IMG/VR virus record: IMGVR_UViG_3300025751_000002
DNA: 64,000 nucleotides
Direction: 5' to 3' (one strand)
Source of the DNA: an uncultured virus (IMG/VR IMGVR_UViG_3300025751_000002)
Taxonomy: Duplodnaviria; Heunggongvirae; Uroviricota; Caudoviricetes
This document shows, piece after piece, positions 815-55,383 of the stretch. The position numbers were made by a program, and so were the translations under genes. The notes below the pieces were generated by a model. The model searched no databases. It saw only the letters and a list, made by a program, of their open reading frames with translations, and was not told the DNA's origin. Position 1 is the first letter of the stretch. Every line of letters begins with the position of its first letter.

Positions 815-2725
815 CTACACATTAAAACCGCGTTGACGTAACACCATTTGCGGATCGCGTCCCTCAATTATAGCTTGACGTACAATTTGACTTGCATCAA
901 TACTACGGCGAGCAACAGCTGTGGGACGACGTTCTGTCATTTGCTCCAGGCTAGGTGGAATTGGTACATCACCTTCAGGAGAAGCTGTGGCTTGTTCCAA
1001 TCCTTCACGCACTAACTCGTTAATTGTCATTTGAGTCGGACGTGTTGACTCAGATGAACGACGAGAGGTTTGTTCTATACCATAGACGCCACTTGTGCTG
1101 CCGGTCTGTCCTTTGGGATCATACTCGGCGACTAGACGACCACCGCCAGTTTTAGGATCTAAATCAACGGAGCGACGCCCGGCTCGTAACTCAAGAGTTT
1201 GAGGGATAATATTACCTTGCGCATCATACTCATAAAACGGACGCACGCCCTCTTGAAAATCACCAAGTTTATAAGTAGATCCCAGTGATTCCAGGGAGCC
1301 CATATACCGCCGTAAAAAATCACGCTCTTCAAGCGCATCTCCTAAATCAACATTAAGAGCCTCTGGTTTGGGTAAGTTTTGTTGTTCGTATTTAACCTGG
1401 CCGAACATCTTGGTATACGCACCACCACCTTTGGGATCGCGATCCATAGCAACACGAAGCATTAACTCTTGTTCACCAAGCTCTTCTGCTTTAGCCGCTA
1501 ATTGTTGTTGTTGTAAACCAATGGAAGAAATTTCATTGGTAAGTTCAATGTCACGTTCAAGTAAATCTCCTGTGTTTTCTGGATAATTTGTTTTTTTATA
1601 AAACTGTCCGGTTGGAAATTCTTCTGTATTAATACCCATTTGCACTGTAGGTTTTACAGTGACCGGAGTAGAAGGAGCGGCAGAAAAACGAGAAAGTACG
1701 TTGGGGTCACCAGTGCTTGCATAAAGCTCTGCTGCCTCAAGAAGTTCAGGATTTTCACTTAAAATTCGTTCAGTACGTGTTGGGCTAAACTGACCAGAAA
1801 GTTCTTGACGTTTTTGTGACAAGAACGACTGTGCTTGTTGTTGTCGTCCTTGAGTTGCAGCAGGTAGTAACCGAAGAGGCTGTGGGCCATACTGTTTGCC
1901 TTCTTGTACCAAATTAGGTACTGTTGCATCCCCCCAAAAATTAGTTTGATCCACAGGAACACCATCTGGTGTCATGGACGCAGCAACATTTGCATTACCT
2001 GTTTGACGTGCAACTTGGTTGACTTGAGAAGCATCAAGATCTTCATTGCGCTGCACACCACGTAACACTCGACCCGTCCTTTGATCTTCGCCAGATTCCA
2101 GGGCAGCCATTGTTTGCGAAGAAAGATTTTGAATATTTCCAGTGCTCTGTCCGCGCCTAAATATTTCTCCTGTATTTGGATCTGTAATTAATACATCTTC
2201 AGTAGAACCACCTTTAGGTATAAATACTTTCTGCAAATCTTCCGCAGGTTTTGCTGCAACTTTTTTATATACTTCAGCACGCCTTTGTTTTTCTGCGTTA
2301 GCTAAATATTCATCTAGATTTACGGTGGCCTGTGGGATTGCAGCTACTCTTGAAGGCGCTACGCCCTCACTAGAGGGTGGGGTGCCGGGGGTGGGCGGCG
2401 CAGGTGTCCTAGGCGCAGTAGTACCAGAAGTCCGACCAGTGGCCGCCTGACGAACGATACCTAAATCACGTTGAGGTGTACTTTGGGTCTTGGTACCACG
2501 GGCAAATCTTCTTGTTCCTGCGAGTGCAGCACCTAATGCACCAAGGCCTAATACCGTACCGCCAAGGATTGCAGGAAGATTTGACTGTTGTTCCGGTTGT
2601 GCAAGTTGCCCGCGGCGGAATGCAAGTACCTCAGGAGCTAATTCGGCCCGTTCCTGCGGTGATTCTGGGTATGGAGCACCAGTAGCACGACTATATGCAG
2701 CAAAATCAGCAGGAGATAAGGCCAT
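815..2725 (-). CDS. large hypothetical protein (possible internal virion protein)
   Basis: 636-aa ORF, low-complexity Gln/Pro/Thr stretches, one hydrophobic Gly/Ala segment. Confidence 0.75.
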   Translation of the reverse strand: MALSPADFAAYSRATGAPYPESPQERAELAPEVLAFRRGQLAQPEQQSNLPAILGGTVLGLGALGAALAGTRRFARGTKTQSTPQRDLGIVRQAATGRTSGTTAPRTPAPPTPGTPPSSEGVAPSRVAAIPQATVNLDEYLANAEKQRRAEVYKKVAAKPAEDLQKVFIPKGGSTEDVLITDPNTGEIFRRGQSTGNIQNLSSQTMAALESGEDQRTGRVLRGVQRNEDLDASQVNQVARQTGNANVAASMTPDGVPVDQTNFWGDATVPNLVQEGKQYGPQPLRLLPAATQGRQQQAQSFLSQKRQELSGQFSPTRTERILSENPELLEAAELYASTGDPNVLSRFSAAPSTPVTVKPTVQMGINTEEFPTGQFYKKTNYPENTGDLLERDIELTNEISSIGLQQQQLAAKAEELGEQELMLRVAMDRDPKGGGAYTKMFGQVKYEQQNLPKPEALNVDLGDALEERDFLRRYMGSLESLGSTYKLGDFQEGVRPFYEYDAQGNIIPQTLELRAGRRSVDLDPKTGGGRLVAEYDPKGQTGSTSGVYGIEQTSRRSSESTRPTQMTINELVREGLEQATASPEGDVPIPPSLEQMTERRPTAVARRSIDASQIVRQAIIEGRDPQMVLRQRGFNV

Positions 2726-2837
2726 GAGTAGATTATTTGCTATCGATTAACCTGATATCTGTATTTTAAGGCAATAACGCAAAAAGATATGCGGTAAAGT
2801 AGTAATAACACAAGAAATATCAGTAGATTGCGTTACG

Positions 2838-3047
2838 ATGAACCCAAAGAACCGGGCTGAGCGCATTATTGCGTTAGAAGCAATTGAAAATGAAGCAAAA
2901 AAGCTTGCAGATAGCGGTGGTGATGAGATTGATGTACGTAATTTCATCTCTGGCGCACGCGAAGAGCTGGTAAAGCAACGTCCTGATAAAGAATCTTATT
3001 TTGAAGCAGCTGTTGCTGCAAAAAAATCAAAAGATTCCCGTAGATGA
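2838..3047 (+). CDS. hypothetical protein
   Basis: 69-aa helical-looking ORF followed by a terminator. Confidence 0.6.
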   Translation: MNPKNRAERIIALEAIENEAKKLADSGGDEIDVRNFISGAREELVKQRPDKESYFEAAVAAKKSKDSRR

Positions 3048-3083
3048 GAGTTTGCTTAGAACTTAATTAAAACTTAGTTAAAG

Positions 3084-3110
3084 GCCGGGGAAAAAGACCC
3101 CGGCTTTTTT
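3084..3110 (+). terminator. intrinsic terminator
   Basis: GCCGGGG-aaaaaga-CCCCGGC followed by T6. Confidence 0.8.
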
Positions 3111-3345
3111 GTCTGTAACGTTGGGCAAATCCCTTGGTATGACTACACTTTTTCGTTATTAATTCGTATTTTAGACAATTTTAATTATTAATTCGTGTCA
3201 CGTAGCTCCAGGGACCCATCCTTTGTTGCGGGCGGCGGCTCCTTATAGGTCAAAAAAGGATAAAAAATTTTCTGACGCTTCTGTAATACCCCATATGCCG
3301 TGGGATGTGTATAGAAAAAAAGAAAGGGTAAGGGTTAGATGTTGT

Positions 3346-3372
3346 CGGGGGCTGCGCATCCGTAAAACGCAG
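3346..3372 (+). ncRNA. variant H-type pseudoknot leader (family A-like)
   Basis: CGGG/TCCG stem, CTGCG/CGCAG second stem, TAAAA loop, 23 nt before ATG 3396. Confidence 0.4.
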
Positions 3373-3395
3373 GCGTTGTTTACCAATTCAAGTCA

Positions 3396-3692
3396 ATGAC
3401 CAAGTTTACAATCAGCATTTCAGAGATGTCTGAACGAATCAGCCAAGCAAGTTTGGCACTTTTCGACGGTAAGAAGGTTAAGTTAGCTCCAGGAGTATTC
3501 CGCGCTAGCGGAATGACACCAGTCGAGTTAATGAAGGAAGTGAAAGCTTCGTTAGTGTGCCAGGAGACAGAGGAACATCTGTCAAAGTTTGGCATTAAAG
3601 CTGGCGAGCGAAAGCAACGTGAGTGGAAAGTGAACGTAACTAGAAGAGCAGAAGACAAGAGCTTCGTTCTTTCAGCTGTTTGCATTGGTTGA
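3396..3692 (+). CDS. hypothetical early protein
   Basis: 98-aa ORF preceded by a CAATTCAA-type leader. Confidence 0.65.
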   Translation: MTKFTISISEMSERISQASLALFDGKKVKLAPGVFRASGMTPVELMKEVKASLVCQETEEHLSKFGIKAGERKQREWKVNVTRRAEDKSFVLSAVCIG

Positions 3693-3882
3693 ATGTTATC
3701 TTTTCCCCTGGTTTCCAGGGGTTTACATAGCATTTACCCTTGAAATGTCAGCATTTCCTGACTTGCGCTCATTATTGGACATCTCCGCGCTACACCTTTC
3801 GCCAGAAAGAACAGTTTGTTGTTTAATCACTGCGTCAAGCAGTGAATTATACCAGAGTTAATACTGTTTTTAGTTAGGTATT

Positions 3883-3908
3883 ACGTCGAGCTGGACGTTA
3901 AACGTAGC
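3883..3908 (+). ncRNA. family A pseudoknot leader, copy 1
   Basis: CGTC-gagctg-GACG-TTAAAC-gtagc. Confidence 0.55.
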
Positions 3909-3930
3909 ACAATTCAATCGCATTTCACCA

Positions 3931-4077
3931 ATGAACATCGATCAGGCTAATCGTTTGGAACAGCTCATGCTTCAGTTTGCAGATCTTGTACGTGAAGTTG
4001 ATGATTCTCAACTGACTTATCTATTCGACGAGATGCTCAATTACATGGGCAACGAAGACAACTACGATTTCATCTGA
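3931..4077 (+). CDS. small acidic protein (48 aa, below ORF-track cutoff)
   Basis: MNIDQANRLEQLMLQFADLV...NYDFI*, bracketed by structured elements. Confidence 0.65.
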   Translation: MNIDQANRLEQLMLQFADLVREVDDSQLTYLFDEMLNYMGNEDNYDFI

Positions 4078-4138
4078 CCACAAGCGTGATGCCGGGGGAT
4101 CAAATCCCCTGGTCAGGTATTGCCACAATCCAGTGGCA
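4072..4138 (+). ncRNA. family C tRNA-like three-way junction plus hairpin, copy 1
   Basis: ATCTG/CAGGT closing stem, small hairpin, GCCGGGGG-ATCAAAT-CCCCTGGT arm, then TGCCAC/GTGGCA hairpin. Confidence 0.6.
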
Positions 4139-4155
4139 TCTATTCCATACAAACC

Positions 4156-4338
4156 ATGACTCAACGCATTGCATTTGTTGTTATTGTCGCTGCTACATTC
4201 ATGGGCATTGGTACTCAGATCACTATCCATAAGTTGGATGAGGCGACTGCAAAACAATGCTTAACACATGATTGGCCAGCAGACGCAGCTAACATCCACC
4301 TTGCGTGGTGTGCAGCTAACAACTACCCAACCAACTGA
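4156..4338 (+). CDS. small membrane-anchored Cys-pair protein (paralog 1)
   Basis: N-terminal hydrophobic helix, LDEATAKQC..HDWP...IH..WC motif. Confidence 0.7.
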   Translation: MTQRIAFVVIVAATFMGIGTQITIHKLDEATAKQCLTHDWPADAANIHLAWCAANNYPTN

Positions 4339-4402
4339 TCCGTTAAAGCGGGTGACCAGGTGCAAACCCTGGTCCAGTTTTTGCCCTCAGCGGAGATGGG
4401 CA
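4333..4402 (+). ncRNA. family C element, copy 2
   Basis: AACTG/CAGTT stem, TCCG/CGGG hairpin, GACCAGG-TGCAAAC-CCTGGTC arm, TGCCC/GGGCA hairpin. Confidence 0.6.
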
Positions 4403-4422
4403 CCGCACAACAGGAGTTTCCT

Positions 4423-4611
4423 GTGACTACTGCACACAAAGCCATCCTTATCTACGTTGTTATCAATGTAGTTGTTGGTATACCAGCTGCCTTGATTGGT
4501 GCTCGTCACCTCGATCAAGCAACAGCTAAGCAGTGCAAAGCGCACGACTGGCCTGCTGCTGCACATCAGATCCATATGGATTGGTGCGCAGATAACGGTT
4601 ACGACACCTGA
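4423..4611 (+). CDS. small membrane-anchored Cys-pair protein (paralog 2)
   Basis: GTG start after CAGGAG; LDQATAKQC..HDWP...IH..WC motif shared with 4156-4338. Confidence 0.7.
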   Translation: MTTAHKAILIYVVINVVVGIPAALIGARHLDQATAKQCKAHDWPAAAHQIHMDWCADNGYDT

Positions 4612-4672
4612 TTCGTTAAGGCGAGTGGTAGGGTTCAAACCCCTACCCAGGTATTGCCACAATCCCGTGGCA
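4606..4672 (+). ncRNA. family C element, copy 3
   Basis: ACCTG/CAGGT stem, TTCG/CGAG hairpin, GGTAGGG-TTCAAAC-CCCTACC arm, TGCCAC/GTGGCA hairpin. Confidence 0.6.
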
Positions 4673-4690
4673 TCTATTCAACTACAGCTC

Positions 4691-4954
4691 ATGGAACCCC
4701 TCATCTATCAACCCTTGGCTGAGAAAACGTATCGTGTCACATGGTACGGCAGTGAGAATCAAATCCATTTCGAGAAGTGGTGCCTAGTAGCAACACCTAA
4801 CTTCGATGGGCCACACGAGTGGATAGCAATTGACACTCGTACATTAATGGGAGGTTTGCCTACTGGTACCAAAGAACTTCACCAAGAGATGGAGGAGTAT
4901 TACAACTACTGCATCGTCATGGAGATGGACTACATCGAATCTCTTATCCACTAG
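4691..4954 (+). CDS. hypothetical protein
   Basis: ATG 4691 in ORF 4496-4954, directly downstream of element C3. Confidence 0.65.
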   Translation: MEPLIYQPLAEKTYRVTWYGSENQIHFEKWCLVATPNFDGPHEWIAIDTRTLMGGLPTGTKELHQEMEEYYNYCIVMEMDYIESLIH

Positions 4955-5044
4955 ATTCCTGCACTTAACCCTACTTACGTAAGTGAGTGGGTTTTCTGCA
5001 GGATTCACATCCTGCATCAACCAAATCAATTCACATGGAGAACC

Positions 5045-5407
5045 ATGAATTATCTCACTCTCATCCACCACCTCGACACAGCAGTACAACTGGTAAGTAA
5101 GTTGTATGCACTAGGTGGAGAACTCTTTAGCATCACAGCGATGCTCTGGTGCTTGAACATCATTGCTTCAATGATTAAGAAGACATACCAGGCAGGTTAT
5201 GCCATTGGTAGTTTCTATCGTCAGTATTTACATCAACACTGTAAGTGGGTAGCAATCCACTTGGTAGCACTCATTGTGTTGATCATCCAGATGTTCTGGG
5301 AAGGTTGCATGTACATTTACCAGAACAGACAGAAGTATTACAAGGTAGTTAACGATATCAGGAATGACATTGGCATGTTGTTTGCATATCGTTACCTCAT
5401 CAACTAA
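5045..5407 (+). CDS. hypothetical membrane protein
   Basis: 120 aa with two hydrophobic segments. Confidence 0.65.
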   Translation: MNYLTLIHHLDTAVQLVSKLYALGGELFSITAMLWCLNIIASMIKKTYQAGYAIGSFYRQYLHQHCKWVAIHLVALIVLIIQMFWEGCMYIYQNRQKYYKVVNDIRNDIGMLFAYRYLIN

Positions 5408-5410
5408 TCA

Positions 5411-5447
5411 CTGGGCATCCACATAATATGTGTGGTGTAAGCCCCAG
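5411..5447 (+). ncRNA. family B bulged-hairpin leader, copy 1
   Basis: CTGGG-CATCCAC...GTGGTG-TAAGC-CCCAG. Confidence 0.55.
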
Positions 5448-5475
5448 GGATTCCAACCACTGTTAAGTTCAACTT

Positions 5476-5739
5476 ATGCCAATCACGTTTGACAATTCAG
5501 AGCTAAAGCAAGCTTTATATCAATTCGACATCAATGAAGAGGATTATTACATCCTTTGTACTGAAAACACTGTCTATATTGTGTGGTGTACCCATGGCAC
5601 AGATGCTTTGGCGCATGCGCGCCAGAATGACTGTGTATCAGTTGAAATCAAAGGTGAATGGTTTTACGCCGAAGAACTTCATGATTTTTTCGAGCCCCCG
5701 CACTGGGTTTGTGCACGTTACATCCTTGCTACTAATTGA
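5476..5739 (+). CDS. hypothetical protein
   Basis: 87-aa ATG ORF. Confidence 0.6.
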   Translation: MPITFDNSELKQALYQFDINEEDYYILCTENTVYIVWCTHGTDALAHARQNDCVSVEIKGEWFYAEELHDFFEPPHWVCARYILATN

Positions 5740-5742
5740 ATC

Positions 5743-5952
5743 ATGACTATTTACCGCATGGGCAAAGGTTTTGTGACCATTGACTCTCATCCCGAGTCCA
5801 ATAAGACTCGATGGGATGATATTGCAGTGGCAGCACTTGCAATCATCCTTGCTGCACTATCAGTACCTGCATTGTTAGGTATTGATATCACCAAGCTCAA
5901 CCCACAACAAACCTCTTGTCATCATGAGCATTCACGTAGCGTTAATCTCTGA
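5743..5952 (+). CDS. small membrane protein
   Basis: hydrophobic segment IAVAALAIILAALSVPALL. Confidence 0.55.
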   Translation: MTIYRMGKGFVTIDSHPESNKTRWDDIAVAALAIILAALSVPALLGIDITKLNPQQTSCHHEHSRSVNL

Positions 5953-6151
5953 CTACGGTTCCGGTATTTGGCATGTTTATGGCGAAGCACAAAGCTTTGG
6001 TATGTTCGCATGTCAACTCGAAGACCTGGGTTGCCAGGTCATCGAGAATCAATCGGATGAATGGGAGGGATGCACCAAGGAAGAAGTAGAGGAGGATGCG
6101 TGCTCCATTGCACAACTCCTCGCTGATCCTAGGTTCACACCACATATGTAG
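5924..6151 (+). CDS. hypothetical acidic protein
   Basis: ATG 5924 within ORF 5882-6151. Confidence 0.55.
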   Translation: MSIHVALISDYGSGIWHVYGEAQSFGMFACQLEDLGCQVIENQSDEWEGCTKEEVEEDACSIAQLLADPRFTPHM

Positions 6152-6226
6152 CGTGTGACCTGACCTCAGACTCTATACCTAGTACTTGTCTTTGGATGAG
6201 TACTAGGTATTATTTCAACGCACCTA

Positions 6227-6718
6227 ATGCATCCCATGGAAGCACTCAGTCAAGTTGATGTTTCAAAACCAGATCACGTCAGTGTGATTACCAGGGATAA
6301 CAAGGTGACCATCTCAGTTACAAAGGATGGGCAATCAGTTACCCTAGGTTTCCAACTGTTGAAATCAGTTAGTAATCAAAGTAAGCAACCTGTTGAGAAG
6401 GTTGATCTACTCGACTTGTTCTCTTCCCCCACACCCCCGAAACAGCCGACACCACAGGCAAAGGCTGTTAAGGTAGATCCTCCAAACATTAGCCTACGGA
6501 AACGTATGGCTAGATCAAGGCATTATGTCAATGGTAATGCCAAGTTAGGAAGTAAGGAGGTGCGTGAAATCAAACAACTATTAGCCGATGAAGCATTCAT
6601 GAATGAGTATACAACTCGCAATGAAGGTTTCAAAGAACTGGCTAAGATTTATGGAGTGACAAGCACTTCCATATCCAATATTGATCGTGGTATTTCATGG
6701 AATAATATTACGATCTAA
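6227..6718 (+). CDS. protein with C-terminal helix-turn-helix DNA-binding domain
   Basis: NAKL..KEVREIK...KELAKIYGVTSTSISNIDRGISW. Confidence 0.65.
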   Translation: MHPMEALSQVDVSKPDHVSVITRDNKVTISVTKDGQSVTLGFQLLKSVSNQSKQPVEKVDLLDLFSSPTPPKQPTPQAKAVKVDPPNISLRKRMARSRHYVNGNAKLGSKEVREIKQLLADEAFMNEYTTRNEGFKELAKIYGVTSTSISNIDRGISWNNITI

Positions 6719-6786
6719 ACCCTGTTATATCTGAAGTATTGGTTGGCACGTAAGATTTGCCAATACATGCCAATGCTTCAGCAAAC

Positions 6787-6837
6787 ACTAGGCATCCACT
6801 ATTGAGAACTATTCTCATCTGTGGTGTAAGTCCTAGT
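6787..6837 (+). ncRNA. family B leader, copy 2
   Basis: ACTAGG-CATCCAC...GTGGTG-TAAGT-CCTAGT. Confidence 0.6.
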
Positions 6838-6866
6838 CCTTCCCAAACCCTACCTCAATTCAAACC

Positions 6867-7142
6867 ATGCAGGACCCTACCTTCATCGATGCACAACGCA
6901 ATGCTGATCTCTTGGATACCATGGCAGATTATGCATTCGAACTAGAAGAAGCAATGCGTGAAGCAGAGCTTACTGAAATCCATTGGGTGTGCGTCGGTTA
7001 TGACACACTCCAGATGAGGAATGATGCATTGGGTTACATGGCAGATACTGCATTACAAGCAGAAGATATCTGTCGTAAGCTTCACCCAAACTTTGACATC
7101 TACTACACCAAGCGTTGCGAAGATTGGGAAGCAACCAAATGA
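6867..7142 (+). CDS. hypothetical protein
   Basis: 91-aa ORF with CTCAATTCAAACC-ATG leader. Confidence 0.65.
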   Translation: MQDPTFIDAQRNADLLDTMADYAFELEEAMREAELTEIHWVCVGYDTLQMRNDALGYMADTALQAEDICRKLHPNFDIYYTKRCEDWEATK

Positions 7143-7233
7143 ATCAATCACTTTGGAAACAATGTTGGGATGACGGTAACATCGTCATCCTTTTTATTGC
7201 AATCACTTCACTCATCATCACGGAACTACTGTC

Positions 7234-7605
7234 ATGCTTCATCCAGAAACCCAAGCAATCGCCAAAGCAATCACTGGTTACGAACCGTTCGAAGGCGATG
7301 AATGCCTTGAGCAATACCAAGCTGAAATCAACTTCGATCCCAAAGGAGTTGTCCTCGGAAAGCTTGACACCTACCCCAAGAACGGATCAGTGTACCGCAC
7401 CAAAGGAACCCTTAGGCTCTACTGGAAACCAACCGGAGGTAACTACTCGCAAGAAGACAAGGATGCGCTCCAAGGATGGTACGACATCCCGTGCAACGAA
7501 GACATAGAGGAATGGACAATGGATAGCGTATGCTTTACACCAGGTGATGATGAGGTTGAACCCGATCATCCAGACAGCTGGCTATCGTTGCTCGGACTCA
7601 TCTAA
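7234..7605 (+). CDS. hypothetical protein
   Basis: 123 aa ending VEPDHPDSWLSLLGLI. Confidence 0.65.
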   Translation: MLHPETQAIAKAITGYEPFEGDECLEQYQAEINFDPKGVVLGKLDTYPKNGSVYRTKGTLRLYWKPTGGNYSQEDKDALQGWYDIPCNEDIEEWTMDSVCFTPGDDEVEPDHPDSWLSLLGLI

Positions 7606-7621
7606 CCAATCAACTGAACTT

Positions 7622-7849
7622 ATGCAACCTCCAATTGGATTAACTGTCAACCAACGTAATCTCTACATGTATTACTTAAATCACATGAAGAAACGTCCTG
7701 ACGAACCATGTTATGTACCGATGCTTCCAAACCCAAGTAGGTTGAAGTATTACATGATTGCTATCCAACGACTGGAGGAGCATAAACTAGTAGCAGTCGA
7801 TCGAACTGCTGGGCATTACACCAGGTGGATCTTAAAGAAGCCTGAGTAA
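7622..7849 (+). CDS. hypothetical protein, possible winged helix
   Basis: LTVNQRNLY...AIQRLEEHKLV pattern. Confidence 0.5.
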   Translation: MQPPIGLTVNQRNLYMYYLNHMKKRPDEPCYVPMLPNPSRLKYYMIAIQRLEEHKLVAVDRTAGHYTRWILKKPE

Positions 7850-7851
7850 AT

Positions 7852-7904
7852 GCATGGGCATCCACTATTGAGAACTATTCTCATCTGTGGTATAAGTCCC
7901 ATGC
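7852..7904 (+). ncRNA. family B leader, copy 3
   Basis: GCATGGG-CATCCAC...GTGGTA-TAAGT-CCCATGC; core nearly identical to copy 2. Confidence 0.6.
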
Positions 7905-7932
7905 TAACCGTACACCTTTTACAACACAGCTC

Positions 7933-8268
7933 ATGACCAACCAAAGCTTTCCTGAAGTGCCTCCCACTGGCGTTCCCTCTGACGCAGTTCTTAAAGTGAA
8001 CTGGGTCAAGAACGAGTACTACTACGTTCAACAAGCTTTGACATTACTGAAAGATGTCATTGCACGTGAATCCAAGAGGCATGAGATGGATCAATATCTC
8101 ACACCAAGTATGTATGCAATGCTTGATGATGAGATCATTCCAATGCTAGAGAATGAACTGGACTACGAACCAAGTGATGCAGATCTTGGTTACGGTAGTG
8201 AACCACCTATGACAATGGATGAGATGTATAAGAAAGCAGTCGAGGACAAGCGTATCGCCTGGTCGTAA
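7933..8268 (+). CDS. hypothetical protein
   Basis: 111-aa ATG ORF. Confidence 0.65.
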   Translation: MTNQSFPEVPPTGVPSDAVLKVNWVKNEYYYVQQALTLLKDVIARESKRHEMDQYLTPSMYAMLDDEIIPMLENELDYEPSDADLGYGSEPPMTMDEMYKKAVEDKRIAWS

Positions 8269-8363
8269 GCTTTCCCCCCAAACCCCCCTGGAAGAGAACC
8301 AGGGGGGAATCTTTTATTAGTATTAGTTAATTACTTTAATCAACCTTCAAATAATCTTTAATC

Positions 8364-8564
8364 ATGACTAAACCTAAATCCTCTATCAACTTTGATAGAA
8401 CCATTGCTGGATTCAATGTTACAGAACATGGTGTTCAATCGTATTCCAAATCAATCAAGCTTGGTCCTTTACAACTAACTATTAATGCCCGTGGCTCAGG
8501 TGTCCGTGGATCAATTAGTATTCCTGGCACAGGCCTGAGCAAACGGAACATCAAGTTGTTCTAA
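8364..8564 (+). CDS. DUF4236-like small protein
   Basis: SKSIKLGPLQLTIN...SISIPGTGLS motif. Confidence 0.55.
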   Translation: MTKPKSSINFDRTIAGFNVTEHGVQSYSKSIKLGPLQLTINARGSGVRGSISIPGTGLSKRNIKLF

Positions 8565-8589
8565 CCAAACATTAAGAGAATCTAAAGCA

Positions 8590-8616
8590 CTGGGCGTCCT
8601 TTGGTGTAAGTCCCAG
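8590..8616 (+). ncRNA. family B leader, copy 4 (minimal)
   Basis: CTGGG-CGTCC-TTT-GGTG-TAAGT-CCCAG. Confidence 0.6.
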
Positions 8617-8642
8617 CTTCTAACCCAACTCCAACTTCAATC

Positions 8643-8810
8643 ATGCTTAATTTGTTTGATCGTATCAACATTGCTTCCTGCGCTGTCAAACGCGCAGAGA
8701 AAGCAATCCTTAAAGAAGATACTTTCCATGGCGAGTGGGAAACTGCTCGTGCCTGGACTAGGTATCGTTGCTACATCTCACCCAAGTGTCAATTCGTGGA
8801 GTGCGACTGA
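8643..8810 (+). CDS. small hypothetical protein (55 aa, below track cutoff)
   Basis: MLNLFDRINIASC...FVECD*, TGATG-coupled to the next gene. Confidence 0.6.
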   Translation: MLNLFDRINIASCAVKRAEKAILKEDTFHGEWETARAWTRYRCYISPKCQFVECD

Positions 8811-9061
8811 TGACTGTACTTTCAATCGAAGAAACAATCGTATCTGACACCCATGTCAAAATCACAGCAATTGTTGACGAGATGCGCCTCGTTTATCGCG
8901 CAACTCACTTCGAGCCTGATGAGTGGGCTCCTGCATTGTGTCAAACAACTATTGAGCTGGATCCAGAGGAACCAATCCCTCTTGATGAAGATGGCTTCTG
9001 TGCCTATCTTGATCAGCTCGATCCTCAATGGCAACTACTAGACAAGGATGACATCGAATGA
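8810..9061 (+). CDS. hypothetical acidic protein
   Basis: ATG overlaps the upstream stop. Confidence 0.6.
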   Translation: MTVLSIEETIVSDTHVKITAIVDEMRLVYRATHFEPDEWAPALCQTTIELDPEEPIPLDEDGFCAYLDQLDPQWQLLDKDDIE

Positions 9062-9215
9062 TTGGATTCTCTCTTGAATTTAAGCGCTGGTACTTTGTGC
9101 TGCGTGGTCCCAAAGGTCGTGTTTATCTAGCTACTGGCTTTGCAAAGCGAATGCCAGTCATGACACCGACTGGTACATACACCATCGAACAGTACCAAGA
9201 CCAGTACTGATCCAC

Positions 9216-9243
9216 CGTCCTGGACATGACGTTAAACTGTCCA
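9216..9243 (+). ncRNA. family A pseudoknot leader, copy 2
   Basis: CGTC-c-TGGACA-t-GACG-TTAAAC-TGTCCA. Confidence 0.65.
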
Positions 9244-9265
9244 TTCCACTTACCCACTCAATTCA

Positions 9266-10999
9266 ATGCAGTTCCAATTACCTTCCAACCTCCAAACCGA
9301 ACTCCTTGCCTACGATCCAGCACTGAAGGCGCTGGCTCAACAGGCCAAGCCTAAGACTACCAAGAAAGCTAAGTATCCACTGGGTAACATCCCTCACCTC
9401 ATACCACACAATGTGGTGCGTGAGTCAGATCAGCAGGCTGCGATTGATCACATCAACCAGCAGAAGGCACCTGATCGCTACAAAGTATTTACCACGCCTG
9501 TGGACGTAGCAACTCCGCAAGCTCGCCTCAAAGTCATTGCCATCTTGTATCACTACGAACAGGTGTGGTACGCAGCGTGGCTACCTCCCAAGCAGCAAGA
9601 AGATGAGTATGTTTATGGCCATGCCTATGCCTTCAAGAACACAGCAGCTGCTAAAAAGGTGGCACCTAACTGGATTTGGAACAGCAAGGACAAGTGCATC
9701 GAGCACGAAGGTGGTCGTGGTGTCCAGACCTTTACTTACTCAATGAATATCACCAAGGAAAACATCATTGGTAAAGCTGAGCATGGCTATCAACATTACC
9801 AATGGCGAGCAGGAAATCTTTATTGCCAGAAAGGTTATCAGATCAGAGACAATGCTGTTGAAGCATTTGAGAAAAGCCTACGTCAAAACATTCCCACATG
9901 GGAAGATTCCCGTGGATTATTTGATCGCATCCGTTGCGAGAACATCTTTGATGCAGCAGAGATACCTGGCGGTATGTCTAAGTATCTAGATAAGAACGAT
10001 GGTCTGACTATTGATAACTTAATTAATGCTGCTAAAAAGTTCAATCAGATGGAGAGGGTGTATACATCAGGCACTTATTGCACCTTGGTTAGTGTTGAAC
10101 GCATCATTTCCAAGCCTGCTATTAAGAAACTTTTACAAATACATCTTGACGAATGCACAAGAACTTATAACGATCCAGATAACAATCGCCAGAAACCAAT
10201 TAGGCAAGCCTGGTCTACATTCCTCCAGGTTATTAATGCCATTGATTGGATTAACAACATCTGGCCTGATTGCCCGCTTGATCATTACCAGACTCATTAC
10301 AAGGAACTTCTTTCTATTAAGCTTCATCAAGTTCGTGTGCGCACTATCGATGCTGACAAAACCATACTGATTGATTGGTTGCGTGAACACATGCCTGTTG
10401 CATCACTCTTCAAGATCATGTATAAGTATGTTGAAGAACAGGATTCCAAAACATCATGGATTGACTCTGATGTTGGTTATGCACGGTATGGATTCCATGA
10501 GCTGAATGACACATTCTCCATGGCAATCCGTATCCTTAACCATCGTGGAGAACTTGCACCACCAAAGCGTTGGCGCCTTAGTGAGTTCCATGACTACGTG
10601 CAAGCTGAGTCCTGGAAGATCCAAAATCCCAACGAATCCTTGCTTCAAGATTTATTTCCTGAACCTATCAGAGTTACACGCAATGGTAAAACCTGGTCAT
10701 TCTTCCAGCCTGTTGACACACATCAGTTGGCTATGTGGGGCCAAGCCGTACGCAACTGCGTCGGTTCTGCATCGCACTATGCCGATGACATCAAGAAGCG
10801 TAAGCACTTCATTGTGCTATGCATGATTGATGGTAAGCCTACCTTTACCATCCAACTGGTGGTTGATATGGGTATGATGTCCGTCAAGCAGATTGCTGGT
10901 GTTGCTAACCAGCGTCTCACGGAAGAGCAACGTGAAGCTTACACAGAAGCTTTCCGTGAGGTCTTGCAACAACGAGAGAAGCAGCTACAATCTGCCTGA
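9266..10999 (+). CDS. PcfJ-domain protein
   Basis: C-terminal L..WGQAVRNCVGS..Y...FIVL....FTIQL...QIAGVAN motif. Confidence 0.7.
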   Translation: MQFQLPSNLQTELLAYDPALKALAQQAKPKTTKKAKYPLGNIPHLIPHNVVRESDQQAAIDHINQQKAPDRYKVFTTPVDVATPQARLKVIAILYHYEQVWYAAWLPPKQQEDEYVYGHAYAFKNTAAAKKVAPNWIWNSKDKCIEHEGGRGVQTFTYSMNITKENIIGKAEHGYQHYQWRAGNLYCQKGYQIRDNAVEAFEKSLRQNIPTWEDSRGLFDRIRCENIFDAAEIPGGMSKYLDKNDGLTIDNLINAAKKFNQMERVYTSGTYCTLVSVERIISKPAIKKLLQIHLDECTRTYNDPDNNRQKPIRQAWSTFLQVINAIDWINNIWPDCPLDHYQTHYKELLSIKLHQVRVRTIDADKTILIDWLREHMPVASLFKIMYKYVEEQDSKTSWIDSDVGYARYGFHELNDTFSMAIRILNHRGELAPPKRWRLSEFHDYVQAESWKIQNPNESLLQDLFPEPIRVTRNGKTWSFFQPVDTHQLAMWGQAVRNCVGSASHYADDIKKRKHFIVLCMIDGKPTFTIQLVVDMGMMSVKQIAGVANQRLTEEQREAYTEAFREVLQQREKQLQSA

Positions 11000-11012
11000 A
11001 CCCACACGGTTT

Positions 11013-11046
11013 ACCAGCCTTAGCCTCGATACTAGGGCTGGTTTTT
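11013..11046 (+). terminator. probable intrinsic terminator
   Basis: ACCAGCC...GGCTGGT followed by a T run. Confidence 0.6.
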
Positions 11047-11050
11047 ACCT

Positions 11051-11269
11051 ATGACTGACTACACCGATGACCAACTACTTGCCATGGCCATGGCCAACAT
11101 TGGTGAGTACATCCATGGCAACTCACCTCAGTACATCTTGATCGAAGAAGATCCTCGCAATGAGGATGACTACGACACATGGGAGTACGGCACTGAACCG
11201 TTACCTCAAGATCATACTTGGCACTCCACATCAATTGATGTAGAGGTAAGTCCAAGTGAGGCCGACTAG
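11051..11269 (+). CDS. small acidic protein
   Basis: 72-aa ORF whose stop lies inside the tRNA 5' end. Confidence 0.6.
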   Translation: MTDYTDDQLLAMAMANIGEYIHGNSPQYILIEEDPRNEDDYDTWEYGTEPLPQDHTWHSTSIDVEVSPSEAD

Positions 11270-11336
11270 CCCAATTGGCAGAGGCAGCGGATTTAAGCTC
11301 CGCCAAGTCCCGGTTCGAATCCGGGGTCGGCTACCA
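11260..11336 (+). tRNA. trnL: tRNA-Leu(UAA), short variable loop, encoded CCA
   Basis: GGCCGAC/GTCGGCT acceptor stem, GCGGA-TTTAAGC-TCCGC anticodon arm, CCCGG-TTCGAAT-CCGGG T arm, A-CCA end. Confidence 0.9.
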
Positions 11337-11416
11337 ACCCAAACTCAATTTAGAACCATGCAATCTCACCTCGGGTAGTAACTATTTACTTCGTTTACAC
11401 TAGTAAAAAATGGTTT

Positions 11417-11719
11417 TTGTATATGCAAAATCGTCTTTACTTTCAACGCACAAAGCAAGCTTTAAATAAAGGTAAAGCTTTGTCTGATGAAGAAGTGCTT
11501 GGTTTGTTAAAAAACGACCAAGTTATTCGATCTGTATATGGTGCATTAGAAGATAGTGATCTTGGCTATCCAGGTGCAGCTGAAGTGTTTGCTGAGCCAG
11601 ACACTTATCAACAATTTTTACAAGAGTATATGAATGATGTTATTCCAATGATTGCTGATGACGGTCAAATTATTGAAGTGCCAAAACCTGGTCTTGAGAA
11701 TAAAAGATATTATTACTGA
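11417..11719 (+). CDS. hypothetical protein between the direct repeats
   Basis: 100-aa ORF; start uncertain. Confidence 0.6.
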   Translation: MYMQNRLYFQRTKQALNKGKALSDEEVLGLLKNDQVIRSVYGALEDSDLGYPGAAEVFAEPDTYQQFLQEYMNDVIPMIADDGQIIEVPKPGLENKRYYY

Positions 11720-11723
11720 TTAG

Positions 11724-11751
11724 CTGGGCATTCTTAAGATGTAAGTCCCAG
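11724..11751 (+). ncRNA. family B leader, copy 5
   Basis: CTGGG-CATT-cttaa-GATG-TAAGT-CCCAG. Confidence 0.6.
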
Positions 11752-11779
11752 GCCACCAACCCAAACTCAATTTAGAACC

Positions 11780-12142
11780 ATGCAAATCTTTGCTGCTTTC
11801 AAGCATCTCGTCCCTGAGTTCCATGCATTTGCCGATCAGGATGCACGGTACAACCTTGGTGCCACATGGACAGGACAAGATGGTCTTAAGGACTACCACA
11901 ACGTTGAGTTCAGGTATGTCCATAACTCCGAGCGTCTTGCCCTCCAGGGGGACCCACAACCCGATGGAAGCTGGCGCTACGTAGAACCGAATGGTTCGGT
12001 CCATACGATCTCTCCAGAGCGTGCTAGCGAGTTCCTAGATCGCACTCAGGCGCAAGCAACCATCATGGTATCTATGCTGGAAAAGTTACGTGATGCTGGT
12101 CTTGGTGACAATATCATCGACACCCAAGCACAAAGCGCTTAA
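11780..12142 (+). CDS. hypothetical protein
   Basis: 120-aa ATG ORF. Confidence 0.7.
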   Translation: MQIFAAFKHLVPEFHAFADQDARYNLGATWTGQDGLKDYHNVEFRYVHNSERLALQGDPQPDGSWRYVEPNGSVHTISPERASEFLDRTQAQATIMVSMLEKLRDAGLGDNIIDTQAQSA

Positions 12143-12164
12143 ACTTCTCCTGCACATTTGTTAT

Positions 12165-12189
12165 CCCCCGCTTTTGCGGGGGTTTCTTT
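12165..12189 (+). terminator. intrinsic terminator
   Basis: CCCCCGC-TTTT-GCGGGGG then TTTCTTT. Confidence 0.7.
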
Positions 12190-12190
12190 C

Positions 12191-12511
12191 ATGTCTGAAT
12201 CAGATCAATCCACTATCCAACAAGATATAAACAACTTAGCAAATGAACAAGTCATTGAAACAATCCTTGATGAAGCACCAGCTGATGCATGGATTGCAAT
12301 CAAAGAAGTATTAATTGAAGGCATCATCGATGCAATGCCTGGCCTGGTAATTGAAAAGATTACTGGCAAAGCAGATGACTTTGATCTTCTTCAAGACATC
12401 ATGTTTGATTGCTATGAACTTCCTGATAAGAGGAAGGAACTTCTGGAAGATTCGTTCCAGATCCTTGGTCAACAACAAGTTCTTGTACTGATTGCAAACC
12501 GCCTTCTCTAA
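12191..12511 (+). CDS. hypothetical acidic protein
   Basis: ATG 12191 in ORF 12158-12511. Confidence 0.6.
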   Translation: MSESDQSTIQQDINNLANEQVIETILDEAPADAWIAIKEVLIEGIIDAMPGLVIEKITGKADDFDLLQDIMFDCYELPDKRKELLEDSFQILGQQQVLVLIANRLL

Positions 12512-12828
12512 TGCCTTACAAACTTAAACGACCATGCATCAAATGTGATGGTCAAAACACAAAGGTTGTTTCAACTGATCACATCAATCCTTACCTTATC
12601 AAAAGGTATTGCAAATGTTTTGATTGCGATGCACGTTTTCGTACACTTGAAGTTCATGAACTACCACCCAAAACTCCTGGTCAACCCTTCACAGAAGAAG
12701 AGATCAAAGGGATACGAGAGTTGCATGCACTTGGTTTGAGCAGTGGTCAAATTGCTCTGAAGTACAAACGCAACTCTGGTTCCATTCGCAAGATCATTAA
12801 CAAACAACGTCGCAGTATCATCCAATGA
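12511..12828 (+). CDS. zinc-ribbon (NrdR N-terminus-like) plus HTH regulator
   Basis: CIKC...TKVVST...KRYCKCFDCDARFRTLE followed by an HTH-like segment. Confidence 0.65.
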   Translation: MPYKLKRPCIKCDGQNTKVVSTDHINPYLIKRYCKCFDCDARFRTLEVHELPPKTPGQPFTEEEIKGIRELHALGLSSGQIALKYKRNSGSIRKIINKQRRSIIQ

Positions 12829-13127
12829 CAAGCAACTCCCAGTACATCTACAAGATTGGTGATCGTGTTGCTGAACGCCCCAAGCAACGCGCAATGTTTG
12901 GTGTAAAGAAAGAAACAAAGGATTGGATTAAGAAGAATATCTTCCAAAGATATGGCACAGTAATTGGTATGGTTAACAAACCAAACAAGAATGGACGTAA
13001 GCAAAAGTACCTAATCATTCAATGGGATCACCTCAAAACACCAATGCAACATGCACAAATGCGTATCTGTCCTGCAGATGCTATTGAACAGTTGACTGCA
13101 ACTGGCTATGGTTGCTCTGTTGAATAA
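12825..13127 (+). CDS. hypothetical protein, SH3-like
   Basis: YKIGDRVAE...YGTV...YLIIQWD pattern. Confidence 0.55.
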   Translation: MTSNSQYIYKIGDRVAERPKQRAMFGVKKETKDWIKKNIFQRYGTVIGMVNKPNKNGRKQKYLIIQWDHLKTPMQHAQMRICPADAIEQLTATGYGCSVE

Positions 13128-13133
13128 AAGAAC

Positions 13134-13799
13134 ATGAATGTAAACCTTGTTTGGTCAACGCCAAACGCAGAAGAGATGATCGTTAAGATGGCACGTGTCT
13201 CTGCACCAAAGAATGAAAGCAACATGGACACAGCTCCAAGGTTGATTCGTTACTTGATTAACCACAAACACTGGTCACCATTTGAAATGGCTAACTTATG
13301 TGTTGAAATCAACACAACACGTGCTATCTCAGCTCAGATTTTACGCCATCGATCCTTCTCATTCCAAGAATTCAGTCAGCGCTATGCTGATACCAATCAG
13401 CTTGGCTCTGCAGTAATCCCACACCTACGTAGACAGGATCAAAAGAATCGTCAAAATAGTATTGATGATTTACCAGTTGAACTTGTTGGCTCCTACTACA
13501 GGAGGATCAGTCAGCTGTACGAAGAAAGCGAACATCTCTATAACGAGATGATTAGCAATGGTGTTGCAAAGGAATGTGCACGTTCAATCTTACCTTTATC
13601 AACTCAAACACGTTTGTTTATGAATGGAACACTCAGATCGTGGATGCATTACATTGATCTGCGTTGCTCCAATGGTACGCAGATGGAGCATGCTCAGCTT
13701 GCACGTGAAGCAAAGAAAGTATTCACTAAAGAATTCCCTTTGATTAGTGAAGCAGCATTCAATGAAAAAGCCCTTGTTAATCAAGGGCTTAATGGATGA
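13134..13799 (+). CDS. thyX: flavin-dependent thymidylate synthase
   Basis: HWSPFE and QILRHRSFSFQEFSQRY signature. Confidence 0.95.
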   Translation: MNVNLVWSTPNAEEMIVKMARVSAPKNESNMDTAPRLIRYLINHKHWSPFEMANLCVEINTTRAISAQILRHRSFSFQEFSQRYADTNQLGSAVIPHLRRQDQKNRQNSIDDLPVELVGSYYRRISQLYEESEHLYNEMISNGVAKECARSILPLSTQTRLFMNGTLRSWMHYIDLRCSNGTQMEHAQLAREAKKVFTKEFPLISEAAFNEKALVNQGLNG

Positions 13800-29282: not shown

Positions 29283-29286
29283 ACCC

Positions 29287-29832
29287 ATGTATACTCCTAC
29301 ATCTCAGCCAGAGGTAACACCTGTTCAGTTGCAACAAACTGAGCTAAAAGCTGTACCAAAAAAAGTTGCAGCTAAATCAAAGGCTGGTGATGTGGGTGGT
29401 TTTATCCAGCAGTGCATTTCACTTTGTTCTTATATCAAAGATCTGGAAACGCAATCCCATCTCATCCACCTGAACTATGAAGGTGCCAATTTCTTAGGTG
29501 TCCATGCATTTCTTAAGGATCAATACGAGTCTCACTTAGCGCAATTTGATACGCTTGGTGAATACATCCGCAGCATGGACTACCTTCTTCCCATGTGTGC
29601 CAACGGATTAGCTGATGCTGGTCCTGGTATGAAACATGTAACAAGCTACAAAGGTACCGATCAACTCTCTACTTACTACAAAAATCTAGAAGAATTAGCT
29701 AACAAAGCTAAAAAACTAGAAAAAGCTGCAGCCAAAATTGGTGCTGTTGACATCCAAAATTACATGGCTGATCTTGTTGGCCAATCATTTAAAGCTGCTT
29801 GGTTTATTAAAGCTACTTTGAGAAATAATTAA
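29287..29832 (+). CDS. dps: Dps / ferritin-like protein
   Basis: HLIHLNYEGANFLGVHAFLKDQY...FDTLGEYIR...AAWFI ferroxidase pattern. Confidence 0.8.
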   Translation: MYTPTSQPEVTPVQLQQTELKAVPKKVAAKSKAGDVGGFIQQCISLCSYIKDLETQSHLIHLNYEGANFLGVHAFLKDQYESHLAQFDTLGEYIRSMDYLLPMCANGLADAGPGMKHVTSYKGTDQLSTYYKNLEELANKAKKLEKAAAKIGAVDIQNYMADLVGQSFKAAWFIKATLRNN

Positions 29833-30146
29833 TCAACCTGTCCGCGAAACCACTTCTGCCGTCCCATAAACCATTCGGCTAACGTAACTGGATCCTGTGG
29901 TCCCACCAGGTGATCACTAGGATCTGGTTCACCAAGATCCATGGCATTACAAAACTCATCCAATTCATTTGCAGGTTCATCACCCTGGATAGCTTTGCGA
30001 CGTGCTTGACGAATCCATGTATTAACAGTTGGATTGCGATCGGCTAACTTCTGTAACCATGCCATATCCTTTAATTCAACTGGTGCCCCCTTACCAATGC
30101 AGTCGCACAAGAATTGAACCCGTAGCCTGGTATTGGTTGAAAGCAT
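29829..30146 (-). CDS. hypothetical cyanophage protein
   Basis: MLSTNTRLR...LDEFCNAMDLG. Confidence 0.65.
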   Translation of the reverse strand: MLSTNTRLRVQFLCDCIGKGAPVELKDMAWLQKLADRNPTVNTWIRQARRKAIQGDEPANELDEFCNAMDLGEPDPSDHLVGPQDPVTLAEWFMGRQKWFRGQVD

Positions 30147-55353: not shown

Positions 55354-55383
55354 TCCGGTCTTCATGCTTTTGATGAAATTATT

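Follow-up and report, generated by a model that had tools for sequence, protein, structure and literature searches.

A small hairpin with an almost invariant UAAGY bulge recurs between genes of S-EIVl-like cyanophages and of unrelated phages

A 64,000-nucleotide stretch of an uncultured caudoviricete genome (IMG/VR record IMGVR_UViG_3300025751_000002; hereafter the window), which belongs to a cyanophage akin to Synechococcus phage S-EIVl, contains five copies of a short repeat that we call family B. We found that family B is a true small hairpin with an almost invariant UAAG(Y) bulge, and it is probably an RNA signal that has not been described before. We consider it likely that family B acts at the RNA level. 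The reading that we favour, to which we assign a probability of roughly 0.4, is that it is an RNA recognition element that acts in cis between cistrons, in processing or in stability.

A first-pass annotation, made from the letters of the window alone, had proposed five hairpin copies, and all five were recovered at the proposed places, on the + strand and in intergenic spacers. The copies, with the E value of the covariance model described below, the minimum free energy (MFE) where given and its z-score, and the leaders that follow them (nt, nucleotides), are:

5411..5447, + strand: copy 1, CTGGG stem, 13-nt insert with its own hairpin, bulge TAAGC (E = 1.8e-07; MFE -17.4 kcal/mol, z = -2.42)
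6787..6837, + strand: copy 2, ACTAGG/CCTAGT stem (G:C to A:U), 25-nt insert with a TTGAGAA..TTCTCA palindrome, bulge TAAGT (E = 0.0027; z = -3.39)
7852..7904, + strand: copy 3, GCATGGG/CCCATGC stem, 25-nt insert as in copy 2, GGTA-TAAGT variant (E = 0.00068; z = -5.13)
8590..8616, + strand: copy 4, minimal, CTGGG-CGTCC-TTT-GGTG-TAAGT-CCCAG (E = 1.7e-06; MFE -7.3 kcal/mol, z = +0.29)
11724..11751, + strand: copy 5, minimal, with a covarying inner pair, CTGGG-CATTC-TTAA-GATG-TAAGT-CCCAG (E = 7.1e-10; z = +0.20)
5448-5475, 6838-6866, 7905-7932, 8617-8642 and 11752-11779, + strand: G-poor, C/A-rich leaders without a Shine-Dalgarno sequence, from each copy to the next ATG

The 3' core RTRTAAGYCC, searched without mismatches, occurs exactly five times in the 64 kb (at 5435, 6824, 7890, 8604 and 11739), on the + strand and nowhere else. 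The whole pattern GGCRTYC-N(3-33)-GRTRTAAGYCC was found five times in the window and never in 300 dinucleotide-preserving shuffles, and its 3' half alone reached five occurrences against a shuffle mean of 0.80 (sd 0.79, maximum 4). A covariance-model search, which had been suggested as a check, gave the same result: a model built from 46 foreign tetraloop members recovered the five copies with E values from 7.1e-10 to 0.0027, and the other 24 of its 29 window matches at E<=10 were generic hairpins with E>=0.078. A near-identical viral record (G001) carries the same five copies. The outer stems differ from copy to copy as first described (CTGGG/CCCAG in three, ACTAGG/CCTAGT and GCATGGG/CCCATGC in one each), and the apical inserts of copies 1-5 measure 13, 25, 25, 3 and 4 nt. 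Copies 2 and 3 are 98% identical, and copy 2 is orthologous to a copy of S-EIVl (L001, 5132-5180) with a different insert. The palindrome TTGAGAA-N2-3-TTCTCAA is common to the inserts of copies 2 and 3 (6802-6821 and 7868-7887) and to four other loci (L040, L061, L077 and L127); it could be an operator, a -35-like box or a plain extension of the RNA.

Family B is found well beyond the window. The pattern GGGCRTYC-N(3-33)-GRTRTAAGYCCC matched at least 134 loci in viral contigs, and a stricter pattern limited to inserts of 3-6 nt matched at least 124 loci in metagenome contigs. Together, viral and metagenome contigs yielded at least 232 non-redundant instances in which two or more outer pairs form and for which 50-nt flanks were available. 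Some viral matches are look-alikes, such as low-GC prophage hairpins followed by a T run ahead of integrase-like genes.

The model that best fits these sequences consists of an outer stem of at least 5 bp, a 3' bulge UAAGY of 5 nt, two pairs, a bulged U, two further pairs and an apical loop or hairpin of 3-33 nt. The hairpin and the bulge of the first-pass consensus stand, whereas its four contiguous inner pairs between CRTY and GRTR give way to a better-fitting register, in which C4 pairs with G16, R5 with U15, Y7 with R14 and C8 with G13, U6 is bulged and U17-A18-A19-G20-Y21 form a pure bulge. Three inner registers were compared and pairing was high in all of them, the favoured and the originally proposed register both reaching 98.4% paired cells in a 46-row alignment. 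The favoured register was preferred because it accounts for the concerted change from CATCC..GGTG to CATTC..GATG, for C:G-closed GNRA and UNCG tetraloops, for the A or G at position 5 (A:U or G:U) and for the MFE fold of copy 1.

Covariation of the outer stem, first noted among the five copies, holds far outside the window. At least two extra outer pairs beyond the fixed G/C formed in 60 of the 72 distinct viral matches listed with inserts of 5 nt or less (14% expected by chance) and in 93 of the 112 matches listed from an independent metagenome scan. Because two outer pairs were required of every row in the 46-row alignment, its columns 7-34 and 8-33 are biased; the three adjoining outer pairs, on which no selection was made, formed in 36, 31 and 25 of the 46 rows, with many pair types. 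The paired share of all cells in this alignment was 91%; shuffling lowered it to 82%, and sliding the partner strand to 50% or less. Six pairs had changed on both sides, and the inner pair Y7:R14 switches from C:G to U:A. Loss of pairing in homologues had been named as an observation that would speak against a structured element; pairing is in fact conserved.

The bases of the bulge vary far less than the helices, as had also been proposed. When positions 17-21 were left free, TAAG was present in 91 of the 92 matches listed. In relaxed scans, positions 5-7 were ATC in 63 of 69 listed matches, positions 15-17 were TGT in 91 of 104 listed matches (AGT in 7, TAT in 6) and position 21 was T in 72, C in 28, A in 2 and G in 2 of those listed. 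Altogether, about 17 fixed bases are kept across phages of unrelated hosts. The apical part is plastic, with GNRA and UNCG-type tetraloops enriched: GTAA (8), GCAA (6), GAAA (3), GCGA (2) and TTCG (6) loops occurred among the 72 listed viral matches, and GNRA loops in 23 of 112 listed metagenome matches. At an orthologous site 5' of a 'DP(T/N)F' gene, unrelated inserts of 12-25 nt occupy the apex in the window, in S-EIVl and in several viral contigs. The suggestion that GG-UGUAAGU-CC is a T-loop-like motif is contradicted by the covariation (CATTC...GATG), and the T-arm reading was rejected: G13 and G14 pair with C8 and Y7, G14>A accompanies the C>U change of Y7, and A14 cannot pair with C22. 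Read directly, UGUAAGU does keep U..A at the positions of tRNA U54 and A58. A pseudoknot between the bulge and the downstream leader was rejected too, as the complement CTTA is no commoner there than in shuffles: 50 of 232 downstream flanks contain it, and the shuffles gave 52.0 +/- 6.6.

Family B loci come from freshwater, marine and other samples, and their carriers range from 30 to 68% GC. The closest cultured relative of the region 5000-12000 is S-EIVl (KJ410740; 71.4% identity over 21% of the query). Among S-EIVl-like phages the copies cluster within a few kb and their number varies (S-EIVl 2, G003 4, G004 5, G001 5, and 2 in the more distant G009). Two fragments of S-CBWM1-like cyanomyoviruses, whose capsid protein is 67% identical to that of S-CBWM1, have one copy between an open reading frame (ORF) of 154-159 amino acids (aa) and the major capsid gene; no copy was found in cultured S-CBWM1 and S-TIM5. 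The other carriers are a complete 51-kb genome of 68% GC (G008), two GC-rich fragments (G013, with two copies, and G014), G011, a fragment that includes a head module of podovirus type, G010, a fragment of 39% GC that bears replication genes, and G012, a phage of 132 kb and 30% GC. The genes adjoining the motif are heterogeneous and include those for capsid, portal, DNA ligase and DNA polymerase as well as ORFans. BLASTP among all ORFs of the window, G008, G009, G012 and six partial loci revealed as common proteins only primase, ThyX and two weak matches, apart from the proteins that the window shares with G009 of the same lineage. As the carriers share no other protein and span 30-68% GC, we take the partner to be universal machinery of the host or else the RNA itself. 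In the three GC-rich phages G008, G013 and G014 a gene of PHROG family 4652, which does not occur in the window, adjoins the motif (L182 3973-4602, L191 7015-7656 and L192 6248-6940), and in G014 170-400 nt of G-rich, repetitive non-coding sequence separate the motif from the portal gene.

In cells the motif hardly ever occurs. Under strict criteria, 35 loci were detected in 596 Gb of cellular genomes, mostly with the long unstructured gaps that chance predicts; inserts were 8 nt or shorter in 8 of the 35, and the convincing ones were in contigs of metagenome-assembled genomes (MAGs), one of which (L170) has the same motif and flanks as viral locus L129. Comparison with the 4227 models of Rfam 15 at E<=10 over 4500-12500 gave only the phage tRNA-Leu as significant and nothing that overlaps a copy, and a scan of 148 kb of carrier loci at gathering score returned two tRNAs and one Glutamine-II riboswitch and no match to family B. 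The riboswitch aptamer is in the distant S-EIVl-like phage G009 (L180 8076-8131; 41.3 bits, gathering score 33). The motifs of the Weinberg 2010 and 2017 surveys are reportedly included in Rfam. When two 40-nt members were compared with 50,697 phage records by BLAST, only chance partial matches emerged; split motifs are beyond the reach of BLAST, and other isolates may carry family B. Exact 11-mers searched in the literature met, among the matches listed, only unrelated eukaryote oligonucleotide contexts, and the RNA spellings did not occur among the rows listed. We regard family B as a real, sharply delimited and widespread intergenic motif of phages that is apparently undescribed.

Its placement between genes is regular. 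In the window, copy 1 begins 3 nt past the stop codon of ORF 5045-5407, copy 3 begins 2 nt past the stop at 7849, copy 4 lies 25 nt past the stop at 8564 and copy 5 lies 4 nt past the stop at 11719. The spacing of 36-40 nt between TAAG and the next start codon noted at the outset was confirmed, with distances of 38, 40, 40, 36 and 38 nt to the ATGs at 5476, 6867, 7933, 8643 and 11780, respectively. Among 106 listed loci, 90 have a co-oriented upstream ORF, and in 74 of these the base of the hairpin lies -1 to +12 nt from its stop codon; the same placement was seen in about 89 of 101 listed metagenome matches. Downstream, the next start codon follows the base of the hairpin by 18-32 nt in 52 of 104 listed loci, mostly S-EIVl-like and with G-poor, C/A-rich leaders without a Shine-Dalgarno sequence, and by 49-50 nt in the capsid-gene group. 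The single copy of the two S-CBWM1-like fragments lies directly 5' of the major capsid gene, a placement that fits an expression-boosting add-on.

Gene order in G012 bears on whether the motif is transcribed. At locus L203 (8046-8311) a perfect TTGACA-17-TATAAT promoter (8046-8074) is followed by a Shine-Dalgarno sequence, a 35-aa ORF (8164-8271) and, 6 nt past its stop codon, the motif; about 100 nt 3' of the motif come a second promoter-like site and a gene at 8471. This order indicates that transcription from a canonical host promoter runs across the motif, which is thus not the promoter there. In addition, contigs from RNA libraries run across copies 3 and 4 of the window without a break, which speaks weakly for transcription. 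These libraries covered 10 and 13 of 30 bins of the 7-kb stretch, the uncovered parts being uninformative.

Copy 5 stands on a cassette that is polymorphic among relatives:

11341..11763, + strand: polymorphic cassette made of an AT-rich 100-aa ORF (11417-11719) and copy 5, flanked by a 35-nt direct repeat

The two repeats (11329-11363 and 11751-11785) are 97% identical and comprise the last bases of the tRNA-Leu gene, the leader and ATGCAA. In contigs from two other runs 11340 is followed directly by 11764, and these contigs thus lack the cassette of ORF and copy 5, and a third variant has the cassette replaced by 20 other letters. More generally, the number and positions of family B copies vary among relatives. 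We read this turnover as a consequence of a repeated regulatory sequence and not as the purpose of the motif.

Fixed bases on a covarying fold, orientation along the coding strand, intercistronic placement, an ordinary host promoter that drives its transcription in at least one phage, use as a single copy ahead of a capsid gene and spread across hosts without a cognate protein together point to a recognition site on a folded single strand. All five window copies are on the coding strand, and we take the recognised strand to be mRNA. The original proposal of a protein- or ligand-binding site is borne out as far as the recognition pattern goes, whereas no ligand or protein partner was found. According to the reading that we favour, family B would be transcribed within polycistronic phage mRNAs by the host RNA polymerase and would fold in the spacer, between the stop codon of the upstream gene and the unstructured leader of the downstream gene and directly adjoining both. 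With the sequence of the helices free, a sequence-specific recognition surface would be made up of U-A-A-G-Y in the 5-nt bulge, the bulged U that faces it and the G:C pairs that flank them. A conserved factor, or the RNA itself, would recognise the bulge, and the hairpin would thereby mark a processing or stability boundary. The downstream message could then gain a structured and protected 5' end, or the upstream message a protected 3' end, and expression of the flanking gene would be uncoupled and raised.

Several observations weigh against such an element. In the helices of an RNA, G:U would be expected to exceed A:C; it did so by 14 to 3 in the viral-contig set and not in the metagenome set (11 to 12), and as the excess was not replicated, a strand asymmetry is not established. 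Apical inserts fold alike in sense and antisense orientation (14 vs 12 of 30 inserts, p = 0.54). Whereas copies 1-3 are stable (z from -2.4 to -5.1), the minimal copies 4 and 5 are unstable on their own (-7.3 kcal/mol; z = +0.3 and +0.2). Only S-EIVl-like loci keep a regular distance to the start codon, which elsewhere extends up to 212 nt, and the RNA-library contigs over copies 3 and 4 could be DNA carry-over. What was observed is the fold, the invariant nucleotides, the placement, the phage-only distribution and the lack of a phage polymerase or shared phage protein; the action as RNA, the binding or cutting and the effect on expression are our inference. Furthermore, if one host factor served in cyanobacteria, in GC-rich hosts and in Firmicutes, it would be expected to have targets in cells too, where the motif hardly occurs. 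This near-absence argues against a simple host regulatory site and keeps alive the idea that the RNA acts alone. An autonomous phage RNA module that dispenses with any phage protein, either the smallest natural self-cleaving ribozyme (about 27-30 nt, cut in or beside UAAGY) or a hairpin that engages a universal host RNA or machine, is in our view a long shot. Such a module would be a plug-in that passes from phage to unrelated phage and sets the boundaries of mRNAs. The bulge could, for example, engage a host RNA or machine by presenting U-AAG-Y in the manner of a lysine codon or of the anticodon-loop letters of tRNA-Leu(UAA). The anticodon loop of the phage's own tRNA-Leu(UAA) (11290-11298) reads TTTAAGC and has T-AAG-Y in common with the bulge, possibly by coincidence. 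Mimicry of domain IV of the signal recognition particle RNA, of tRNA-Tyr or tRNA-Leu anticodon loops, of the 11-nt tetraloop receptor, of a K-turn or of UAA/GAN was also considered, and none fits fully.

A final point against our reading is a likeness to the promoter of phage Syn5, which we treat as a lead. The Syn5 RNA polymerase promoter is ATTGGGCACCCGTAA followed by G(+1) in the available part of its description (PMC3950665), and both genomic copies were located in the Syn5 record. Compared with that sequence, family B shares GGGCAYCC (7 of 8 bases) and GTAAG in the same order, non-contiguously, and with an apical GTAA loop its 5' half approaches almost the whole of the promoter as given there. 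The second Syn5 promoter likewise lies a few nt past a stop codon and has a long leader downstream. Family B could on these grounds be a hairpin-bearing Syn5-type relative. Either a phage polymerase that escaped recognition or a host polymerase in modified form would use it and start close to the G of TAAG, with an extruded or pre-melted bulge as initiation bubble and the 25-30-nt leader as 5' untranslated region. Promoters are typically as dense as five sites per 6.3 kb of small early genes, the ATG spacing is constant within the S-EIVl-like group, and TTGAGA lies 16-17 nt 5' of TRTAAG in copies 2 and 3 and in three of four related loci (20 nt in L061). However, PF00940, the family of T7-type single-subunit RNA polymerases, was present in none of nine motif-bearing records (S-EIVl and G002-G009, of which G003, G008 and G009 are rated 100% complete), while the Syn5 control gave 4.2e-77. 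A scan of the 83 window ORFs against PHROG and Pfam, made ORF by ORF with about 15 kb of the genome lying outside the window, likewise found no polymerase of RNA type and no integrase, transposase or RNA-binding family. A polymerase that reads duplex DNA would not tolerate conserved halves at distances of 3-33 nt, and covariation of the stem would serve no purpose in a promoter read as duplex. As a sigma-70 -10 box, TGTAAG is missing A2 and T6; sigma-70-like sites are not enriched (12 in 11 kb vs 21.6 in shuffles) and none lies at any copy. S-CBWM1-like phages have one copy or none in 65-139 kb, and in G012 canonical promoters stand on both sides of the motif. We judge a promoter, the other outcome named at the outset as speaking against the proposal, to be unlikely. 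A signal to the transcribing polymerase is distinctly unlikely as well, whether as a terminator or attenuator that lacks a U-tract and ends the upstream unit or as an antitermination element of put/nut type, by which the polymerase would read through terminators farther downstream. Placement directly past stop codons and the closing of a short unit ahead of a new promoter in G012 would suit it, as would the + strand intrinsic terminators at 7167, 8283, 11013, 12165 and about 6176 (the last by eye), which alternate with the five copies; to our knowledge, cyanobacteria lack Rho. A further + strand hairpin resembling an intrinsic terminator lies at 3080. The derived scheme of units running from motif to terminator was dropped, as the alternation is absent in G004, G003 and S-EIVl. 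Moreover, none of the 17 terminator-like sites in 2500-13500 is a family B copy, and the copies are followed by C/A-rich leaders and not by a U run. With genes 27-40 nt on there is no room for a promoter, so that full termination would silence them, and we know of no similarity to boxA/boxB or put.

A self-contained RNA module that cuts polycistronic RNA between cistrons without a protein, as a very small self-cleaving ribozyme would, could account for a patchy, host-independent and cross-phylum spread in mobile genomes that share no protein. Its conserved unpaired nucleotides would lie between freely covarying stems with a dispensable apical stem-loop, and catalytic cores are often as weak thermodynamically as the minimal copies. 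Twister-sister-like 'lantern' ribozymes of 31-35 nt, in which two stems surround conserved loops of 5+6 nt, show in the accessible part of their description that such a small two-stem class exists (PMC11620745). Against this, the loops of family B (1+5 nt, or 3+7 in the alternative register) and their letters are unlike the twister-sister loops as given there, and the two Rfam scans described above detected no ribozyme family in 4500-12500 or in the 148 kb of carrier loci. The RNA-library contigs cross copies 3 and 4 uncut, a weak argument, and the element would be below the size of any known natural ribozyme; we consider this improbable. Highly improbable, in our assessment, is a module for recombination or mobility at the DNA level that exchanges gene cassettes in the manner of PeSLs or integron attC sites. 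Sites of the attC type have extrahelical bases, a variable terminal structure and a position right past cassette ORFs, as family B does. PeSLs, in the portion of the report at hand, are conserved stem-loop/promoter units between ORFans that mediate insertions and deletions (PMC4122927). The cassette of ORF and hairpin that is missing from variants, and copy numbers of 2, 4, 5, 5 and 2 at differing positions among close relatives, would follow from such exchange. Nevertheless, the cassette is bounded by the 35-nt leader repeat and not by the hairpin, the window scan gave neither an integrase nor a transposase, and locus-specific covariation of the outer stem indicates that the fold is selected at each site and not copied as a unit. 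Recombination may be a by-product of a regulatory role and not a rival to it.

The genome around the copies is that of a cyanophage. PHROG and Pfam matches in the window include a ThyX thymidylate synthase, a family-A DNA polymerase, SSB, primase, tail and virion proteins, lysozyme and an NblA-like ORF. A run of genes on the + strand extends from about 2.8 kb to 23 kb, and family B occupies its first part amid small ORFs of no known family; a tRNA-Leu(UAA) gene lies at 11260-11336. ORF domains include an NblA-like protein (phycobilisome degradation, 55069-55365), a ferritin-like protein (29269-29832), a 577-aa PcfJ-like protein (9266-10999) and a small NrdR-type zinc-ribbon (12511-12828), and three ORFs are HNH endonuclease-like (30091-30414, 35919-36443 and 59283-59639). 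Three large ORFs on the - strand (47719-50826, 57058-59286 and 815-2725; 1035, 742 and 636 aa), considered as candidates for a hidden polymerase, had no Pfam, PHROG or PDB-sequence match, and their homologues were found only in the same phage lineage (G009). T-arm-like hairpins, for example with a 5-bp stem and a TTCAAAC loop, occur right 3' of stop codons at about 4095-4110, 4346-4374 and 4631-4647, and a 43-nt repeat (4103-4145 and 4637-4679) with a TGCCAC..GTGGCA hairpin lies about 20 nt 5' of the ATGs at 4158 and 4692. These are probably the other hairpin families of the first-pass annotation, and they suggest that some hairpin and a C/A-rich leader precede each early gene.

Family B crosses host phyla and is in neither Rfam nor the literature searched. 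About 17 fixed bases without a cognate phage protein would point to a conserved cellular target or to an intrinsic activity, and either, if real, would offer a handle on the boundaries and yields of phage messages and a compact part for synthetic operons. If it is only a stabilising hairpin, its significance is modest, yet it is still a new RNA family. For S-EIVl-like cyanophages, family B is a ready marker of early-gene units.

Among known systems, the RNase III hairpins between the early genes of T7 are helices of about 20 bp cut by an enzyme with little sequence specificity. Like family B, they are bulged or internal-loop hairpins between small early genes on one strand, with a presumed role in cutting and stabilising early RNA; minimal family B copies, by contrast, have about 9 pairs (5 outer and 4 inner) and about 17 fixed bases, copies 1-3 being longer. 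Copies 4 and 5, with an MFE of -7.3 kcal/mol, fall short of the roughly two helix turns typical of RNase III sites. In lambda boxB, the MS2 and PP7 operators and HIV TAR, a free helix with a fixed bulge and neighbouring pairs is the classical signature of protein recognition, as was argued from the start for family B; these sites have their cognate protein in the genome, whereas family B carriers share none. The promoters of the N4 virion polymerase and attC sites are single-strand DNA hairpins whose consensus is unrelated to family B. No giant virion polymerase of the N4 kind is encoded in the window, where the largest ORF has 1035 aa and no matches, and with regard to integrons no recombinase family occurs among the 83 window ORFs and the attC core consensus is not seen in the motif.

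The PeSL and PmSL cassettes of T4-like phages resemble family B, as far as the part of the report consulted goes, in being intergenic stem-loops next to small ORFans in a plastic early region with insertions and deletions (PMC4122927). In the window, the flanking ORFs have no Pfam or PHROG family and the cassette 11341-11763 is missing in variants, as in PeSL regions. According to the same part of that report, PeSLs join a sigma-70 or Mot-type promoter to a plain stem-loop (PMC4122927), whereas family B has no such promoter, an invariant bulge and carriers in unrelated lineages. The 'lantern' ribozymes are also about 30 nt long, with two covarying stems and a dispensable apical stem-loop; as described in the accessible text, they have a C-A cleavage site and 5+6 loops (PMC11620745), where family B has a 5-nt bulge that faces a single U. 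Lastly, the Syn5 promoter appears in the available description as a contiguous 15-bp duplex without a hairpin, present twice per genome, whereas family B has split halves and covarying flanks; both cyanophage sites nevertheless lie a few nt past a stop codon.

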